From contig JAHFHC010000002.1 of assembly GCA_023247085.1 (NCBI GenBank), positions 24,395 to 88,394 of the forward strand: a DNA stretch of 64,000 nt, given 5' to 3'. Both the position numbers and the translations under genes were made by a program. Below the pieces are notes generated by a model, which did no database searches, had not been told where the DNA came from, and saw nothing but the letters and a program-made list of their open reading frames with translations. Numbering within the stretch: position 1 is the stretch's first letter; the number at the start of each line of letters is the position of its first letter. This stretch comes from Candidatus Micrarchaeota archaeon. Its GTDB lineage: Archaea; Micrarchaeota; Micrarchaeia; Norongarragalinales; UBA8480. Of this stretch, positions 22,632-29,507 are shown in pieces.

Positions 22632-24293
22632 ATGGTAGTAGTGTCTTTTCCAACAAATCAACTCAAAAAGAAACTAAAACTCAGTGGCGACTTTCAAAAA
22701 ACGCTTTCTGAAACACTATTTAAAATTGGAATGGAACTCGAGTCAATAAATGACGACGAAACCATAATTGACATAGCTGGAGCAGGTAACCGCATTGATG
22801 CAGTTTCACTAGAAGGCCTTGTCAGGATAGTAAATGCATACGTTGGAAACTACGATTTTTATTTTCCAAAAATCACAAAAGGCAAAAACACAATTAATGT
22901 AGACAAAAGCGTAGCCGACATAAGGCCTTACATGGGTAACTTTATTGTGCGCGATATAAACATCGACGATGAGTTACTGACTCGCATAATCAATTACCAA
23001 GAAAAAATTGCCTCTACATTTGGTCGAAACAGAAAAGTAATCGGAATGGGTTTATTCAAATTAACTGAACTAAAGTTTCCACTCCAGTATATTGCCCTTC
23101 CTGCAAAACAAATTAAATTTGCCCCCCTTGGCTTTGAACAAGAAATGACTGGCGATGAGATCCTAAAAAAGCACGATAAAGGCGCCAAATACGGCGACTT
23201 ATTCGCCGGGAAAGATAAGTTACCCATATTGCGCGACGCAAACGGCAAAATCTTAACGATGCCAGGAATAACAAACAGTAATGATCTAGGCCGAGTTGAA
23301 CCAGGAAAACAAGACTTATTCATAGAAGCAACTGGCTCAAATCCAACGATGTTAATTCAATTATTAACCGCATGCGCGCTTGACTTCATTGAACTTGGTG
23401 GCAAAATAGAAAGCTGTACTGTAAATTATAATGGCAAAAAAGTAGAATTTCCGCAATTCACTTTTGATAAATACGTGCTTTCAATAAGTGAAATTGAATC
23501 AAAATTGGGCTTATCCCTCTCGTCACAACAAGCAGTTAAACTACTAAAACAAATGATGTTGCCAGCAACTGCAAAAGGCAACTCCGTTTTAGTCGATGTG
23601 CCTCGCTTTCGCTCTGACGTTGTACATAAAGTAGACGTAATAGAAGATGTTGGCAGAGCTTACGGCTTTGACAATTTTTCTCCCCTTGCTCCAACTCAGT
23701 ATAACTTCGGCAAAAAACACGGCAAGACGATTTTATTTGATTCAATTATAAGTTCATTTGTAGGACTGGGCTTCCAACAAGTTGTCTCCTTGATTTTAAC
23801 CGCTAAAAGTGAAGCAACTACAAAAGCAAATGTTGCGGACAATGGAAAATTTGTCGAATTACACTCAAGCCGGGCACTTGGATTAGATTCATGCCGTCAA
23901 TCTCTTTTACCGGGTTTACTTGCAATAGTAGCAAGTAACAAGGGATATTCTTACCCGCAAAAAATATTCGAAGTTGGAGAATGTCTTGAACTTGACAAAA
24001 ATAATGAAACCGGTGCATCAACCACTTGGAAAACATCTGGGGTTATAGCTGGTGCAAACCTTGGCTTTGCAGATGCAAAAGCAACAATAGAAGCACTTGG
24101 CAGGTGCCTTGATGATTACAAACTAAAAATAGAGCCAATGGAAGACAAGCGATTCATAACGGGCAGGTGCGCAAAAGTAACTGGAAAAACCTTCAGCGGC
24201 TTATTCGGAGAACTTGACCTTCAATTACTCCGCAACCACGGCATAGAAATGCCTTGCACTGCAATGGAAATAGAGCTGAAGCAAAAGAAATAA
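22632..24293 (+). CDS. pheT: Phenylalanyl-tRNA synthetase beta subunit (archaeal)
   Basis: About 553 aa, immediately after pheS. B3/4 and B5-like regions. Start placed at the ATG right after the pheS stop. Confidence 0.75.
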   Translation: MVVVSFPTNQLKKKLKLSGDFQKTLSETLFKIGMELESINDDETIIDIAGAGNRIDAVSLEGLVRIVNAYVGNYDFYFPKITKGKNTINVDKSVADIRPYMGNFIVRDINIDDELLTRIINYQEKIASTFGRNRKVIGMGLFKLTELKFPLQYIALPAKQIKFAPLGFEQEMTGDEILKKHDKGAKYGDLFAGKDKLPILRDANGKILTMPGITNSNDLGRVEPGKQDLFIEATGSNPTMLIQLLTACALDFIELGGKIESCTVNYNGKKVEFPQFTFDKYVLSISEIESKLGLSLSSQQAVKLLKQMMLPATAKGNSVLVDVPRFRSDVVHKVDVIEDVGRAYGFDNFSPLAPTQYNFGKKHGKTILFDSIISSFVGLGFQQVVSLILTAKSEATTKANVADNGKFVELHSSRALGLDSCRQSLLPGLLAIVASNKGYSYPQKIFEVGECLELDKNNETGASTTWKTSGVIAGANLGFADAKATIEALGRCLDDYKLKIEPMEDKRFITGRCAKVTGKTFSGLFGELDLQLLRNHGIEMPCTAMEIELKQKK

Positions 24294-24341: not shown

Positions 24342-25604
24342 TTATTGTGGCGTAGGTGAAGGGCTTTCAAGTTTAGGATGCCACTCTTCCAAAGCGCGTT
24401 TTAAGTCGGCATTATAAGCCTTTCCAGCAAGTAAAATTAATTTGCGTGCCGCAGCTAAATCCGCCCCCTCTAGCCTTCTACCCATAGAAATTGCTTTTGC
24501 ATAATGACGAGCAGCTATTTCAGGATTCCCTGATTTTAATTGCGTGCGTGCGTCTACAATTGCATTTTTCGCTTCCCTTGCCAATCCTTCTTCAGTAGCT
24601 TCGATTTCAATTGGTTTGCTTCCTTTTTTTTCATGTTCTGTTTCAACATTGGCAGTGCCAATGGGACTTGCAGGAGTAATGCCAGCTGCGGCTCCACTTG
24701 TGCTGTTTGGCTCAATAGTGTAGTTAGTCATAATAGCCGCTATTTTATTTTTTTTTACATATGCCCCTAGTTTCTCTTCCCAGTTTTTGCCAGGCATTTT
24801 TACTAATTCAAACAACGGTACGTGTACCGGTCTATTAGAAGTTGTGTCAAGTTTTGCCTCTCCGGTTGTTTCTGGAGTATCACTAACTTCATATTCATCT
24901 TTTGGTGGTTTAGGTTCTACAAATGGGTGAATTGGTACCACTTCTCTTTTACCAAAGTTTCTTAATTCAACTTTAGTAGGTTTAGGCAATTGATTCATGG
25001 CAAATGGTACGCCGAAAGCTAAGAGGCCGCCTAAAGTTAAGGCACCTAATGCATGTCTCACTAGTCCCGGTTTACCTCTCTTTTTTGGTAACAACGCAGA
25101 GGCCGCTCTTAATGCAACTGCTTCTTCTTTTTGCGTTCTAGGTCGCTGCTTCGGCTTTGAAATTTTAGTGGTATCAGGCGCTGGTTTTGACTCTTTTCGA
25201 GTTGGTTTAGGTGCTGTAGGTACTGAAGGTGTTGGCTTTGTTTTCTCTTTGACTGCAACTACTGCGGCTTGCTTCAAAAAGTGGCTCAATGTAGGTGCTT
25301 CAAAATGAGTTTTTAAACTACGTAAAGCTTCTTTAGCATCGGTTCCACTTGTGATTTTTCTTTCATGGTGTCTAATAAGTTCTCCTGTTCTACTCAAAAA
25401 TGCTTCAGTTTTTTTTGCAGTGGTTGCTTCTTTATGCAAACGCGCCATGTGGCTGCCGAGTTCCATTAATCTACTTGCAAACTTAGAATCAGTTTTTGCT
25501 CGTTTTGCAAATTCAGTAAATAGGTGACCTTTACTTGTTTGTAAAAAACCGTAGCGTGGAATTTTCTTTTCCTCGTAAAATCGCTTTGCATCTTCTCTTC
25601 TCAT
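24342..25604 (-). CDS. Single-pass membrane protein, paralog A (conserved N-domain, Pro/Thr-rich linker, TPR-like C-terminus)
   Basis: 420 aa. N-terminus FYEEKKIPRYGFLQTSKGHLFTEFAKR...; one TM helix (ALGALTLGGLLAFGVPFAM); conserved VPLFELVKMPGKNWEEKLGAY; C-terminal helical repeats (AARHYAKAISMGRRLEGADL...). Confidence 0.6.
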   Translation of the reverse strand: MRREDAKRFYEEKKIPRYGFLQTSKGHLFTEFAKRAKTDSKFASRLMELGSHMARLHKEATTAKKTEAFLSRTGELIRHHERKITSGTDAKEALRSLKTHFEAPTLSHFLKQAAVVAVKEKTKPTPSVPTAPKPTRKESKPAPDTTKISKPKQRPRTQKEEAVALRAASALLPKKRGKPGLVRHALGALTLGGLLAFGVPFAMNQLPKPTKVELRNFGKREVVPIHPFVEPKPPKDEYEVSDTPETTGEAKLDTTSNRPVHVPLFELVKMPGKNWEEKLGAYVKKNKIAAIMTNYTIEPNSTSGAAAGITPASPIGTANVETEHEKKGSKPIEIEATEEGLAREAKNAIVDARTQLKSGNPEIAARHYAKAISMGRRLEGADLAAARKLILLAGKAYNADLKRALEEWHPKLESPSPTPQ

Positions 25605-25618
25605 TTTTTATCTAGTAC

Positions 25619-26749
25619 CTATTTTGTTTTTTTAAGTTTTTGTTTTGTTTCTTCAACTTTAGCCGCTGGTTTTTGTAGCAAACGATGCCAGTCTTGCATA
25701 GCATGTTGAATGCTATAGCTTGAATTTGGCTCAGCGATGTTCATCAACGCGTGTGCATGCTCTAAGTCGCTTCCGGTTAATTCTCTACCAAAATAAATTG
25801 CGCGCGTGTAATGTAACGCCGCCATATCGTAGTTTCCTTTATCCCACTGACTGCGTGCTTTGTTTATTGCCATTTCTGCTCGTTCGGTTAATGCTTTTTC
25901 AGTTGGGTCTATATCTGGATTTGTAGTTTCTTTTGGCACATATTTCGTTGACACATCAGTTGTGCCGCTTGCGCTTGCAGTGGTGGGCACTGGTTTGTTT
26001 AAGTCGGCTGTGTTATTTGGAGTTGCAGTTGTGAGCACTACCTCGCTTGGTTCAATTGGTTCCTGCGAATAATCCAATATTGAAGCTTTTACGCCGTTTT
26101 TGCTTGAATACGCTGCGAGTTTATCCGCCCATGTCTTGCCGGGCATTTTTACTATTTTAAACAACGGTACCTCTATTTGTGGCGTGTAAATTGTTGATTC
26201 AATTTGAGGAGGTCTAATTAATTGATTTTCAGGAGTTTTCATTGCTTGGTGCATACCAAATAGTCCACCTGCAATTGCGCTGGCAGTTATTGCTAAGGCG
26301 CCGAATGCGCGCACTAGCCGTTTTGGTTTATTTCTCTGTTGTGGTAAAGCTGCGGTTGGTGTGGCTTTTTCTTGTTTGGCTGGTGTGATTGTTGCAATTG
26401 CTGTTTGTTTTAAGAATTCATTTAATGTGGGTGCTTTAAAGTGTCTATTTAGGCGTCGTAATGCATCTTTAGCATTCGTTCCTTTTGTCATTGTGGTTTC
26501 GTGGTGTTTTACGAGTTCAATTACTTTTTGTTTAAAGAAGTCGGTTTTGTCTGTAGTAGTTGCTTCTTTGTGTAGGCGTGCTATGTGGGCGCCTAGTGCT
26601 GTTAAATCTTTTGAGAATTGTGGGTCAGTCTTTCCTTGTCTTGCAAATTCAGTAAATAGGTGACCTTTACTTGTTTGTAGAAGGCCGTAACGTGGAATTT
26701 TCTTTTCCTCGTAAAACTGCTTTGCTTCGTTTACTTTCATTTTTCTCAA
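25619..26749 (-). CDS. Single-pass membrane protein, paralog B (same architecture as 24342-25604)
   Basis: 376 aa. N-terminus FYEEKKIPRYGLLQTSKGHLFTEFARQ; TM (AFGALAITASAIAGGLFGM); VPLFKIVKMPGKTWADKLAAY; TPR-like C-terminus. The 5' coding DNA is nearly identical to that of paralog A. Confidence 0.6.
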   Translation of the reverse strand: MRKMKVNEAKQFYEEKKIPRYGLLQTSKGHLFTEFARQGKTDPQFSKDLTALGAHIARLHKEATTTDKTDFFKQKVIELVKHHETTMTKGTNAKDALRRLNRHFKAPTLNEFLKQTAIATITPAKQEKATPTAALPQQRNKPKRLVRAFGALAITASAIAGGLFGMHQAMKTPENQLIRPPQIESTIYTPQIEVPLFKIVKMPGKTWADKLAAYSSKNGVKASILDYSQEPIEPSEVVLTTATPNNTADLNKPVPTTASASGTTDVSTKYVPKETTNPDIDPTEKALTERAEMAINKARSQWDKGNYDMAALHYTRAIYFGRELTGSDLEHAHALMNIAEPNSSYSIQHAMQDWHRLLQKPAAKVEETKQKLKKTK

Positions 26750-26755
26750 TAATGT

Positions 26756-28351
26756 TTATACTGTTTCAATTATAATTCCTTCGATTTCAACAACTGGAAA
26801 CTGCTTAGTTTGTTCAAGCGCAAACCCTATTTTGTCTTTACTCGTGCCATATAGCGTATATAGTTTTTGTCCTTTTTTCACTTTGTCGCCAGTTTTCACA
26901 TGTATAATCATTCCAACTGTCTTGTTAGCTGGACAGCCTAATATGCGGCAAACGCGCGAAATCGATTTACTGTCAACATGTTGTACTTTGCCGTCTGTTT
27001 CAGCAACCACGTCACTTGTAATTTTAGAAATTTTAATATCTTTTTCAGTTATATCCGGGTCGCCACCTTGAGCGGCTACAATCTCTTTAAACTTCTGGTA
27101 AACTTTTCCACTGCGCATCTGGTGCAACGCAATCCGGTAACCTTCTTCTTGAGTTGTGCCACGCACCATTCTTAAAACCCTTCCAGCCATAAGGCAAGTT
27201 TTTTCGCAAAGTAACCCGTCGCCGCCTTTTAATACTTTTAGAACTTCTTGCGCTTCTAACCCGGGTCCAATGGCCATGCTGATTGGTTCACTCCCGTCAG
27301 TTATAAGCACTTCAACTTTCATACCTAGTTTTGCACCAAGCGATTGAAAATCTTGAGCTAATTCGCGCGCTTTGTCAACATCAAGTATCTTCGTCCCCCG
27401 GCCAATTGGAATATCAAGCAAAACGTGCGTTGCCCCTTCGCTTTTCTTCTTTGCTAAAATACTTGCTAACAAAAGTGACTTTGGATCCAAACGAAGCGGG
27501 TTACGGATTTTAATCAACTTGTCATCTGCAACAGCCATGTTGACTGCGCCGCCCCACACTAAGCAACCATTAGTCTTCTTCACTACTTTTTTAATGTCTT
27601 GAATAGAAAGCGAAACCGGACAAAACACTTCCATTGTATCTGCTGTTCCAGACGCACTTGAAATCGCCCTAGTGCACGTTTTTGGAATCGTTATGCCGAG
27701 CGAAGCAAGAAGCGGCACAAGCAAAATGCTCACGCGGTCGCCAGCAACTCCTCCAATTGAATGCTCGCTAACGATTATTTTGCCTTTTTCAAACTCAAGC
27801 TTATCTCCAGTTTCATAAATTGCCTTTGTCAAAGCAGTTGTCTCTTCAGTGTCCATCTCATTAGTGTAAACTCCGGTGATAAACGCGGCTAATTCGGCAT
27901 TTGAAAGCTTTTCATCCATTAAATCGCGAATAATAGCGCTGATTTCTTCTTTTGTCAAAGTCTGACCATCGAGTTTGTTTCTAATATAATCGAGACTTTT
28001 TGGCCGTTGAGTTGACTGAATAACCACTTTTTCTCCAGTCTTTACGCCAAGCGCCTGCCCTACTTCTGCCATTAATTCTATTTCGCCAGGCTTAACATAA
28101 TACTTTGAATAATTTACAATTGCAACAATCTCCTTGTTGCGATACTTAACTTTAACTCGGTCTAATAAACTCAAATCAAGCTGTTTTGCCTCCTCTTCAC
28201 TTAACACAACTTCGTTTTGGCCTGCTTCAATATCCAAAACCTTTGCAGTGAGATTCATTGTTTCAAAATTTCCCATGTGTATCATGCCTTTTTCGAACCC
28301 TTGTTGAGGGGTATTGACTTGAGTGTTTTTCTTTGTCTTCAACATAACCAT
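26756..28351 (-). CDS. deoA: AMP phosphorylase / thymidine phosphorylase family (DeoA-type with N-terminal extension)
   Basis: 531 aa. Glycosyltransferase family 3 core (SEHSIGGVAGDRVS, GRGTKILD). The roughly 90-aa N-terminal extension is typical of archaeal AMP phosphorylases. The true start may be an internal Met. Confidence 0.7.
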   Translation of the reverse strand: MVMLKTKKNTQVNTPQQGFEKGMIHMGNFETMNLTAKVLDIEAGQNEVVLSEEEAKQLDLSLLDRVKVKYRNKEIVAIVNYSKYYVKPGEIELMAEVGQALGVKTGEKVVIQSTQRPKSLDYIRNKLDGQTLTKEEISAIIRDLMDEKLSNAELAAFITGVYTNEMDTEETTALTKAIYETGDKLEFEKGKIIVSEHSIGGVAGDRVSILLVPLLASLGITIPKTCTRAISSASGTADTMEVFCPVSLSIQDIKKVVKKTNGCLVWGGAVNMAVADDKLIKIRNPLRLDPKSLLLASILAKKKSEGATHVLLDIPIGRGTKILDVDKARELAQDFQSLGAKLGMKVEVLITDGSEPISMAIGPGLEAQEVLKVLKGGDGLLCEKTCLMAGRVLRMVRGTTQEEGYRIALHQMRSGKVYQKFKEIVAAQGGDPDITEKDIKISKITSDVVAETDGKVQHVDSKSISRVCRILGCPANKTVGMIIHVKTGDKVKKGQKLYTLYGTSKDKIGFALEQTKQFPVVEIEGIIIETV

Positions 28352-28412: not shown

Positions 28413-29507
28413 ATGGATAAACAATACGAAGAACTGCTCGCAAATAGAAACTACGTAATAGAAGAACCAGGCAAAGCGCTGTCAGAAGACGAAAAAGAAA
28501 TCCTTGCCGTACTAGAAGCCAGCCAGCCAAAAATTTACATTGTAGGCACTGGAGGCAGCGGCTGTAACACAGTAAACCGCATGGCTCAAATCGGAATCAA
28601 AGGCGCATACACTGTTGCCATGAATACCGACGCGCAACACTTACTTCGAATAAAAGCCGACAAACGCCTCTTGCTAGGCAAAAAGAAAACAAAAGGCCTT
28701 GGCGCAGGAAGCAACCCCGCAATTGGAGAAGCAGCTGCACAAGAATCACAAGAAGAAATAAAACAAATCCTAGCAAATGCAGATTTAGTATTCATAACCG
28801 GAGGGATGGGTGGAGGAACTGGAACTGGTTCAGCTCATGTAATTTCCAAAATAGCAAAAGACATAGGTGCAATTGCAATTGGGGTTGTCACGCTCCCATT
28901 TTATTCTGAAGGGCCACGCAGAATGCAAAACGCAGCAGACGGCTTAGGAAAACTACAACGCAACGCCGACACTGTAATTTCAATTCCGAACGACAAATTA
29001 CTTCAATTTGTTCCAGATCTGCCACTTAATGCCGCATTCAAAGTAGCGGATAGCATTTTAGTAAATTCAGTTAAAGGAATAACTGAATTAATCACTAAAC
29101 CAGGTTTAGTGAACCTAGACTTTGCAGATATGCGCACAATCCTCGAACACGGCGGAGACGCTGTAATTGGACTTGGAGAAGTGAACAACGACGAGACAAA
29201 AGACCGTTTGTTAATCGCAGCTGAAAAAGCGCTAACCTCTCCATTACTTGATATTGACGTTCGAACCGCAGACCGCGCATTAGTGAACATCACTGGAGGG
29301 TCAAGCATGACTCTAGGCGAAGCAGAAGCAGCTGTTAATGCAATTGCTTCCAAAGTTTCCAAAGACGCTCACATAATTTGGGGCGCAACAATTGACGACA
29401 CAATGGAAAAAGGCGGAGTACGCATTTTAGCTGTACTCGCTGGAATAAAACACAAAAGTGAACCAAGCCAACAAACAGAGGCAAATATAGACCTCGATTT
29501 CGTGTGA
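28413..29507 (+). CDS. ftsZ: Cell division GTPase FtsZ
   Basis: Tubulin signature GGGTGTGSAH; NTDAQHL, IYIVGTGGSGCNTVNRM. Start placed at MDKQYEELL, internal to the longer ORF-track call. Confidence 0.9.
   Translation: MDKQYEELLANRNYVIEEPGKALSEDEKEILAVLEASQPKIYIVGTGGSGCNTVNRMAQIGIKGAYTVAMNTDAQHLLRIKADKRLLLGKKKTKGLGAGSNPAIGEAAAQESQEEIKQILANADLVFITGGMGGGTGTGSAHVISKIAKDIGAIAIGVVTLPFYSEGPRRMQNAADGLGKLQRNADTVISIPNDKLLQFVPDLPLNAAFKVADSILVNSVKGITELITKPGLVNLDFADMRTILEHGGDAVIGLGEVNNDETKDRLLIAAEKALTSPLLDIDVRTADRALVNITGGSSMTLGEAEAAVNAIASKVSKDAHIIWGATIDDTMEKGGVRILAVLAGIKHKSEPSQQTEANIDLDFV

Follow-up and report, generated by a model that had tools for sequence, protein, structure and literature searches.

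How can two neighboring genes retain nearly the same DNA at their 5′ ends, yet encode proteins that have diverged over most of their length? This question is raised by a pair of adjacent minus-strand genes, referred to here as A and B, in a 64,000-nucleotide (nt) stretch of the genome of a Candidatus Micrarchaeota archaeon (assembly GCA_023247085.1, contig JAHFHC010000002.1), the whole of which we call the window. A preliminary description of the pair, made from the sequence alone, did not recognize the family and proposed either gene conversion or a constraint at the nucleotide level. Our analyses strongly support gene conversion. Taken as a whole, it is likely that A and B are an orphan micrarchaeal tandem pair with a predicted type-II membrane layout and a 5′ conversion tract; an adaptor role of their products is proposed with low confidence.

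A gene conversion tract in two tandem paralogs

Gene A, the upstream paralog (25619..26740, minus strand), encodes 373 amino acids (aa) from the ATG at 26740 and is identical to the database protein P0001. Gene B, the downstream paralog (24342..25604, minus strand; 420 aa), corresponds to P0003 and begins 14 nt past the stop codon of A. The mechanically called open reading frame (ORF) of A opens with a TTG at 26749 and would give 376 aa; this TTG is an alternative start, and the alignment with B and the orthologs, together with the entry P0001, makes the ATG at 26740 the most likely one. Both ORFs are present and their products align with 37% identity across 431 columns (BLASTP, E = 6e-82), so that A and B are tandem paralogs with a common layout, as had been described. 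No third family copy was found in the 64-kb window.

The near-identical tract at the 5′ ends is real. It covers codons 6–34, at 26641..26725 in A and 25505..25589 in B (both on the minus strand), where 79 of 85 nt (92.9%, blastn) are identical. Exact runs of 39 nt (25505–25543 and 26641–26679) and 26 nt (25555–25580 and 26691–26716) lie at an offset of 1136 and are slightly longer than the 37 and 24 nt first reported. They are split by a patch at nt 51–61, comprising the codons for RYG-L/F-L, which was either left unconverted or mutated afterwards. Over the 354 nt that encode the N-terminal domain (N-domain), A and B differ at 102 positions; when these differences were permuted, a run of at least 39 nt appeared in 0.02% of the trials, and an 85-nt window with six or fewer differences never did. 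Where the two proteins have the same residue with a degenerate codon, the codon itself is identical in 23 of 26 cases in codons 1–33, as compared to 23 of 45 in codons 34–118 (Fisher p = 0.0018). The permutation and codon tests therefore place the tract beyond chance. It spans the best-conserved peptide motif of the family, FYEE..IPRYG.LQT....FTEFA, with F9, Y10, P16, R17, Y18, G19, L21, Q22, T23 and F29–A33 being invariant in five close members.

The genome of Candidatus Micrarchaeota archaeon isolate nzgw34 provided the comparison, with the orthologs A5 (5′-truncated at codon 23 by the end of its contig) and B5. In nt 22–99, A is 92% identical to B, 79% to B5 and 88% to A5 (nt 67–99, the part present in A5), whereas in nt 100–354 it is 65% identical to B and 87% to each of A5 and B5. 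The tract is thus clearly more similar between the paralogs than the rest of the genes (92% versus 65%). The synonymous divergence (dS) between A and B follows the same course: 0.30 in the tract (codons 8–33), 1.35 in codons 34–118 and 1.6 in the ectodomain. As a baseline, the orthologous genes for the alpha and beta subunits of phenylalanyl-tRNA synthetase (PheRS) have dS values of 0.42 and 0.63, A and A5 of 0.3–0.4, and B and B5, downstream of the N-domain, of 0.75–0.78. Within the tract, the ortholog-type values are 0.47 for A–A5, 0.48 for A–B5 and 0.49 for B–B5, values that do not fall below the average of the genes and lie inside the range of the PheRS orthologs (0.42–0.63). Because this divergence is ordinary, the tract is not a generally slow site. 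Moreover, when B5 was taken as the third sequence, 13 informative sites in the tract grouped A with B and 5 grouped A with the relative, versus 9 and 64 elsewhere (Fisher p = 1.2e-6); with the sequences C4 and C5 in third place, the test gave p = 4.6e-6 and 5.9e-4. By this site pattern, the tract lies at roughly nt 25–100 of the genes.

The 5′ tract is thus strongly supported as the footprint of gene conversion, that is, of non-reciprocal homologous recombination between direct repeats 1136 nt apart; the switch of informative sites at its border, the drop of dS from about 1.35 to 0.30 in the tract, and a separate tract in nzgw34 (see below) all bear out the gene conversion reading of the preliminary description. 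In B, a stretch of about 75–85 nt in the N-domain (codons ~8–33) was probably overwritten by A-type sequence, with the rest of this domain staying at paralog divergence. A was probably the donor and B the recipient, because the A-type relatives are much closer to the tract than to the remainder of B. The position of the tract also finds an explanation: we infer that the conserved motif keeps enough nucleotide identity to seed recombination. Since the motif is where the paralogs retain the identity to recombine, selection need not be invoked to explain why conversion struck the N-domain.

Several points weigh against this reading or blur its details. The direction from A to B is read only from the likeness of the tract to A-type relatives (79–88%, versus 65% for the rest of B), a comparison that is confounded by the conservation of the motif at the protein level. 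The tract is also imperfect, with six differences, four of them clustered, and a dS of 0.30, which means that the event either lies some way back or was patchy. The genomes available for comparison are few, one close relative (in two assemblies) and three distant ones, and the 5′ end of A5 is missing at a contig break. Finally, selection for alike N-domains is not separated here from neutral conversion seeded by the motif.

Recurrence of conversion in a related genome

The 5′ domain was converted independently in nzgw34, over at least 350 nt. There, A5 and B5 are 100% identical in codons 23–60 and 93% identical across 356 nt into the linker, after which the identity is 40–60%, and their dS is 0 in codons 23–60 versus 1.64 in the ectodomain. 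The N-domain of B5 has a dS of 0.28 to A, which is an ortholog distance, and of 1.26 to its own ortholog B, which is a paralog distance, while B5 is orthologous to B in its remaining part. The whole N-domain of B5 was therefore replaced by A-type sequence, in an event distinct from that of the window. In this lineage the N-domain, predicted to be cytoplasmic, is in concerted evolution, and the ectodomains of A, B and a third type of paralog, C, diverge. At a more distant two-copy locus (L007), no nucleotide similarity was found between the copies, and concerted evolution is therefore confined to the lineage of the window and nzgw34.

Two independent tracts of differing lengths on one domain show that short direct repeats undergo active homologous recombination in these organisms. 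The converted repeats have practical consequences too, as they break metagenome-assembled genomes at the locus and can mislead orthology calls, the N-domain of B5 looking "A-like". Both nzgw34-type assemblies end within the A ortholog (L005:1–120 and L001:1–34), L005 exactly at the onset of the 100%-identical A5/B5 repeat. We also considered a conversion between the unlinked type-C gene and B5 in nzgw34, at which a dS of 0.10 in codons 8–33 had hinted; the remainder of the domain, however, has the same nucleotide identity as these codons (87%), and the candidate was rejected as small-sample noise.

Alternative explanations for the tract

Could the identity of the tract have arisen without recombination? 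Both mRNAs carry it at their 5′ end, where its nucleotides might be held in place by a function that the two genes need, be it a translation-initiation element, the target of a regulatory RNA or a structure of the mRNA, and the 85-nt copy of A indeed folds somewhat better than its shuffles (z = −2.8; 3 of 200 shuffles were as good). However, the copy of B folds no better than shuffles (z = −0.4), into a predicted structure unlike that of A, and the whole 64-kb window contains no Rfam match at the gathering score. A constraint of this kind also fits poorly with the ordinary synonymous divergence of the orthologs in the tract (dS 0.47–0.49), with the other boundaries and the length of at least 350 nt of the identical region in nzgw34, and with the L007 pair, in which nucleotide similarity is lacking. 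Alignment across the relatives, which had been proposed as a check, thus supports conversion and not a conserved RNA element, and we consider the nucleotide-level constraint highly improbable.

A second possibility would be that purifying selection on the most constrained motif, in combination with codon bias, yielded identical codons. The coincidence of the tract with the best-conserved motif of the family speaks for this explanation, which is nevertheless very unlikely to be correct: synonymous identity is raised as well (23/26 versus 23/45 codons, p = 0.0018), the motif diverges by 12–21% at the nucleotide level between orthologs, the informative sites switch from A+B to A+ortholog at the border of the tract (p ~1e-6), and E11, E12, K13, K14, I15, K25, G26 and H27, which vary in the relatives, are the same in A and B. 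An artefact of assembly or binning, in the form of a collapsed or chimeric repeat, has also to be considered, given that both relative contigs break within the repeated N-domain, where assemblers struggle. The window copies, however, lie on one contig, 1136 nt apart, with six copy-specific differences in the tract; B5 with its A-type N-domain was recovered in two independent assemblies (ENA k141 and NCBI NODE); and A5 and B5 carry distinct substitutions beyond the exact repeat. Such an artefact is hardly credible, and gene conversion is the explanation that we adopt in the following.

Domain architecture and predicted topology

A and B share a layout composed of a helical, basic N-domain, a basic linker, one transmembrane (TM) helix, a VPLF..PGK.W block and a small helical C-terminal domain. 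The N-domain, of ~115 aa, aligns between A and B without gaps. That of A (26387..26740, minus strand; aa 1–118; isoelectric point (pI) 9.9) is all-helical and predicted to be cytoplasmic, and its AlphaFold2 (AF2) model is a helical bundle of high confidence, with a predicted local distance difference test (pLDDT) score of 93 and a predicted template modeling (pTM) score of 0.85. The corresponding domain of B (25251..25604, minus strand; aa 1–118) has, outside the tract, ~65% nucleotide identity (65–69%) to all other known copies. In all members, the pI is 9.8–10.5 for the N-domain and 10.5–12 for the linker. The segment preceding the TM helix, which had been described as a Pro/Thr-rich linker, proved to be strongly basic and rich in Lys, Arg and Pro (pI 11–12 in A and B); a Ser/Thr-rich spacer does exist, but it sits in the ectodomain.

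Each protein has a single hydrophobic stretch, rich in Gly and Ala, and all TM-bearing members have a hydrophilic N-terminus and no signal peptide. The TM helix of A (AFGALAITASAIAGGLFGM; 26252..26308, minus strand; aa 145–163) is flanked by net charges of +5 on its N-terminal and +1 on its C-terminal side, and that of B (ALGALTLGGLLAFGVPFAM; 24996..25052, minus strand; aa 185–203) by +5 and +2. All eight of the TM-bearing members show this asymmetry (+4 to +5 versus +1 to +3). The side of the basic linker would be cytoplasmic because of the positive-inside rule, and we thus predict a single-pass, N-in/C-out topology, that of a bitopic type-II protein. As to the surface or cell-contact system that the preliminary description had considered possible, this topology would leave about half of each protein extracellular, but would place the converted, best-conserved domain in the cytoplasm. 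On the other side of the balance, the prediction comes from hydropathy and the charge rule only, the TM stretch is moderately hydrophobic (Kyte–Doolittle 1.55–2.2), and the TM region has low confidence in the AF2 model.

In the full-length AF2 model, a pLDDT of ~90 is reached both by the VPLF..PGK.W block, modeled as a strand-helix-strand module, and by the helical hairpins of the C-terminus. Confidence is low for the linker, for the TM region and for the Ser/Thr-rich spacer. The block has the consensus VPLF(K/E)(I/L)VKMPGK.W..KL.AY in A and B. In A it reads VPLFKIVKMPGKTWADKLAAY (26108..26170, minus strand; aa 191–211) and forms the core of the confidently modeled module, and in B it reads VPLFELVKMPGKNWEEKLGAY (24759..24821, minus strand; aa 262–282). 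An alignment of seven ectodomains revealed invariant P, F, PG, K, AA, I, G, L and W residues. The sequence pattern of the block had suggested a LysM- or SPOR-like domain; this reading was dropped in view of the AF2 model, with a strand, a short helix, a helix and a strand, and of the lack of a profile match.

The C-terminal domain of A (25673..25900, minus strand; aa 281–356; pLDDT ~90) carries the motif AA..Y..AI..G..L.G.DL and is weakly TPR/MIT-like; that of B, placed by alignment to A, spans 24369..24599 (minus strand; aa ~336–412). The preliminary description had called this part TPR-like and helical. Its helical nature was borne out by the AF2 model, but no TPR profile reached its curated threshold: A matched TPR_7 and TPR_1 with E = 0.2–0.3 (11–12 bits, versus cut-offs of ~28), and among the relatives P0002 matched TPR_15 with E = 0.0057 (16.6 bits versus 26.2) and P0005 matched TPR_16 with E = 0.046. 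A Foldseek search against the PDB gave a best E of 0.53, to MIT and Tom20-type mini-TPR domains, which is below significance.

A lineage-restricted orphan family

None of the profile searches placed A or B in a characterized family, in line with the first impression that the family could not be recognized. Scans of A, B and all relatives against Pfam and NCBIfam returned nothing above the cut-offs, including no OmpR-type winged helix, helix-turn-helix (HTH) or anti-sigma domain; the sub-threshold noise in the family-library scans comprised TPR models, Vac_Fusion, SAT, NAGLU_C, CIS_TMP and DUF5600. The PADLOC anti-phage defence profiles gave no match with an E below 0.097. Searches of the PDB with A alone, the N-domain profile and the ectodomain profile found only designed helical proteins or matches with E of at least 0.003. 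One PDB-search match, to SXP/RAL-2 (E = 0.052), was judged to be compositional.

Relatives are few. Among 5.8 billion protein clusters, a word-indexed search yielded five proteins in all, A, B and three more; seven turned up when 1.84 billion representatives were searched exhaustively with a hidden Markov model of the N-domain. Among the GTDB species-representative genomes, nzgw34 is the sole relative, and the protein P0008 is assigned to Micrarchaeota by NCBI. Two scans of JGI metagenomes with the N-domain and VPLF-block patterns, and one scan of viral contigs, found no relatives. The family is thus an orphan, lineage-restricted one, whose members known so far all come from one subclade of Candidatus Micrarchaeota (DPANN), and appears to be undescribed.

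The copy number, which had been put forward for a survey, differs among the relatives. The loci L008 (P0007) and L011 (P0008) have one family copy each, and two copies are present at L007 (P0006 and a 447-aa paralog), at the nzgw34 locus (L005/L001) and in the window (A and B). The single-copy state is probably ancestral, and the duplication that gave rise to A and B is older than the split of the window organism and nzgw34. Both genes are under purifying selection, as indicated by a dN/dS (ratio of nonsynonymous to synonymous divergence) of ~0.2–0.3 between the orthologs. Between the window and nzgw34, B (24342–25604 versus L005:1139–2404) has evolved faster than A, with a dS of 0.75–0.78 and a dN of 0.17–0.24 for B and a dS of 0.3–0.4 and a dN of ~0.1 for A. 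Though faster-evolving, the ectodomain of B is closer to the single-copy outgroup proteins (88 versus 51 bits to P0006).

Further variants of the architecture exist. The type-C paralogs P0004 and P0005, of which P0005 also occurs in nzgw34, keep the N-domain, linker and TM helix, and have an ectodomain of 38-aa helical repeats, encoded by a 114-nt tandem repeat in 3.4 copies. They are located at L003:2321–3700 (= L006), L004:536–1915 and L002:1790–3061, are 84–91% identical at the nucleotide level to the A-type copies in the common N-domain, linker and TM part, and lie downstream of an eS26-like gene; in L003 and L004, the next genes after the paralog are a PIN/MazE pair and msrA. Two adjacent genes at L012 (ENA ERZ27276474, k141_5590614), L012:54–1364 (436 aa) and L012:1398–2768 (456 aa; P0009), encode three tandem N-domains each and no TM helix, which marks the N-domain as an autonomous module that occurs in soluble arrays as well. 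The protein P0008 (584 aa; L011:6001–7755, GCA_043797485.1) carries extra TPR-like C-terminal modules before and after its VPLF-type block, which suggests the duplication of a module within one gene, and not a gene duplication.

Organization of the locus

The window pair is flanked by an AMP/thymidine-phosphorylase-like gene, ftsZ and the genes for archaeal-type PheRS alpha and beta. The AMP/thymidine-phosphorylase-like gene (26756..28351, minus strand) lies directly upstream of A, 15 nt from its ATG, and is probably co-transcribed with it. A homologous AMP phosphorylase gene is the conserved left neighbor at five family loci of Micrarchaeota, and the gap between its end and the family gene is 10 nt in L008 and L011, 15 nt in the window and 60 nt in L007. 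Such short gaps at all of the loci examined suggest a single transcription unit for the nucleotide-salvage enzyme and the orphan membrane protein. The conserved right neighbor is the PheRS beta gene (22632..24293, plus strand), convergent with B, and the conserved order of the locus is ftsZ, the divergent AMP phosphorylase gene, one or two family genes, and the convergent genes for PheRS beta and alpha.

The start codons of two of these neighbors merit a correction, as the mechanically called ORFs probably extend too far in the 5′ direction. For PheRS beta, the ATG at 22632 (MVVVSF, the same in L005) is most likely, in place of 22587, and for FtsZ it is the ATG at 28413 (MDKQYEELL), in place of 28323. 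ARAGORN found no tRNA genes in the whole 64-kb window, which may be due to chance in a small genome, or to intron-containing or split tRNAs that the tool missed.

Possible functions of the family

Attachment to host cells is the way of life of DPANN archaea such as Micrarchaeota, and most of their envelope proteins are uncharacterized. With its conservation, synteny and purifying selection, and a confidently predicted N-domain that has no detectable relative, the family is a candidate for studies of the envelope and the host interface. A and B may be transmembrane adaptors, and we propose this with low confidence. The common cytoplasmic N-domain would then act as a handle that docks to one intracellular partner, or pairs A with B, and the differing ectodomains would bind differing extracellular partners, for example the S-layer, the envelope or a host surface. 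Against this proposal, the searches revealed neither a characterized homolog nor an informative fold match.

A more elaborate, rather speculative version would be a clade-specific modular receptor or adaptor system of Micrarchaeota, in which a handle of a new fold, homogenized by conversion and present also in soluble three-domain arrays, is combined with interchangeable ectodomains of types A, B and C for differing ligands, such as the organism's own S-layer or host surfaces. Conversion would then be selected because all of the paralogs dock to one partner. The membrane anchoring of the S-layer is explicitly unknown in the one cultured Micrarchaeon (PMC8975820).

Two other functions deserve to be weighed against the adaptor role. 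The proteins might be membrane-tethered regulators with a topology like that of ToxR or CadC, whose basic N-domain and linker bind DNA or RNA upon a signal from the ectodomain. The predicted order of a cytoplasmic N-domain, a linker, one TM helix and an ectodomain would match, the N-domains and linkers are basic in all members (pI 9.8–10.5 and 10.5–12), and soluble proteins of three N-domains exist. However, neither Pfam nor NCBIfam revealed a winged-helix or HTH family match, and a high pI, which is common in small AT-rich genomes, is weak evidence; we regard this function as unlikely. Alternatively, the family could belong to the machinery of cell division or of the envelope, for example as an FtsZ-linked membrane anchor or spacer whose N-domain contacts the divisome. 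The ftsZ gene is two genes away, in an order (ftsZ, divergent AMP phosphorylase gene, family gene) that is kept in the window, L008 and L011, and a basic, flexible linker beside the membrane recalls the tethers of division proteins. Yet the family genes lie on the strand opposite to ftsZ, with a metabolic gene in between, the shared gene order may be due to nothing more than the close kinship of the genomes, and no search revealed a similarity to SepF, ZipA, FtsA or CdpB-type proteins, all of which makes this role decidedly improbable. Both readings have thinner support than the adaptor role.

Comparison with known systems

With respect to the order of their parts, A and B resemble the ToxR/CadC regulators and the RsgI anti-sigma factors, which also consist of a cytoplasmic N-domain, a flexible linker, one TM helix and an extracytoplasmic C-domain. 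The likeness is one of layout only, however, as there is no sequence or fold relationship and no OmpR-type winged helix or anti-sigma domain; to our knowledge, archaea have no sigma factors. Likewise, the C-terminal domains recall TPR- and MIT-like domains, such as those of designed CTPR proteins, HcpC/Sel1-like proteins, Tom20 and the Vps4 MIT domain, with Pfam TPR matches (E = 0.006–0.3) below the gathering scores and Foldseek E values of at least 0.53. The C-domain of A and B is, however, preceded by the strand-helix-strand module of the VPLF..PGK.W block, which is lacking in canonical TPR proteins.

In the Mycoplasma vsp/vlp, Borrelia vls and Neisseria pil systems, gene conversion acts on surface-protein genes with a conserved 5′ end and a variable 3′ part. 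The A, B and C genes share with them the presence of several paralogs per genome with a near-identical 5′ module and divergent extracellular parts, and recombination on the common module. In those systems, however, the exposed part is diversified and the conserved 5′ end is a signal or lipoprotein leader, whereas A and B have in its place a folded domain of ~115 aa with a predicted cytoplasmic location. Moreover, the conversion of A and B homogenizes, the copy number is 2–3, and no silent cassettes were seen.

Gene conversion itself is a known process, and concerted evolution in prokaryotes has already been surveyed (PMC6053082). The closest described case is that of mtrA-1 and mtrA-2 in the mtr operons of methanogens, in which domain-restricted concerted evolution is recurrent (Wang et al. 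2015, PMC4632066). Both cases concern archaeal paralogs of the same operon in which one soluble domain is homogenized, while the remainder (the membrane part or other domains) differs, and both recur in separate lineages. On the other hand, the mtrA domain has a known enzymatic role and its homogenization has lasted across orders, whereas A and B belong to an orphan family, their tracts, of ~85 nt in the window and of ~350 nt in nzgw34, are short and confined to two close lineages, and the L007 pair is free of conversion. The pair thus brings no surprise at the level of the mechanism: the process is known, and the protein family is apparently new. Together, A and B provide a small, clean instance of domain-restricted concerted evolution in a reduced-genome archaeon.

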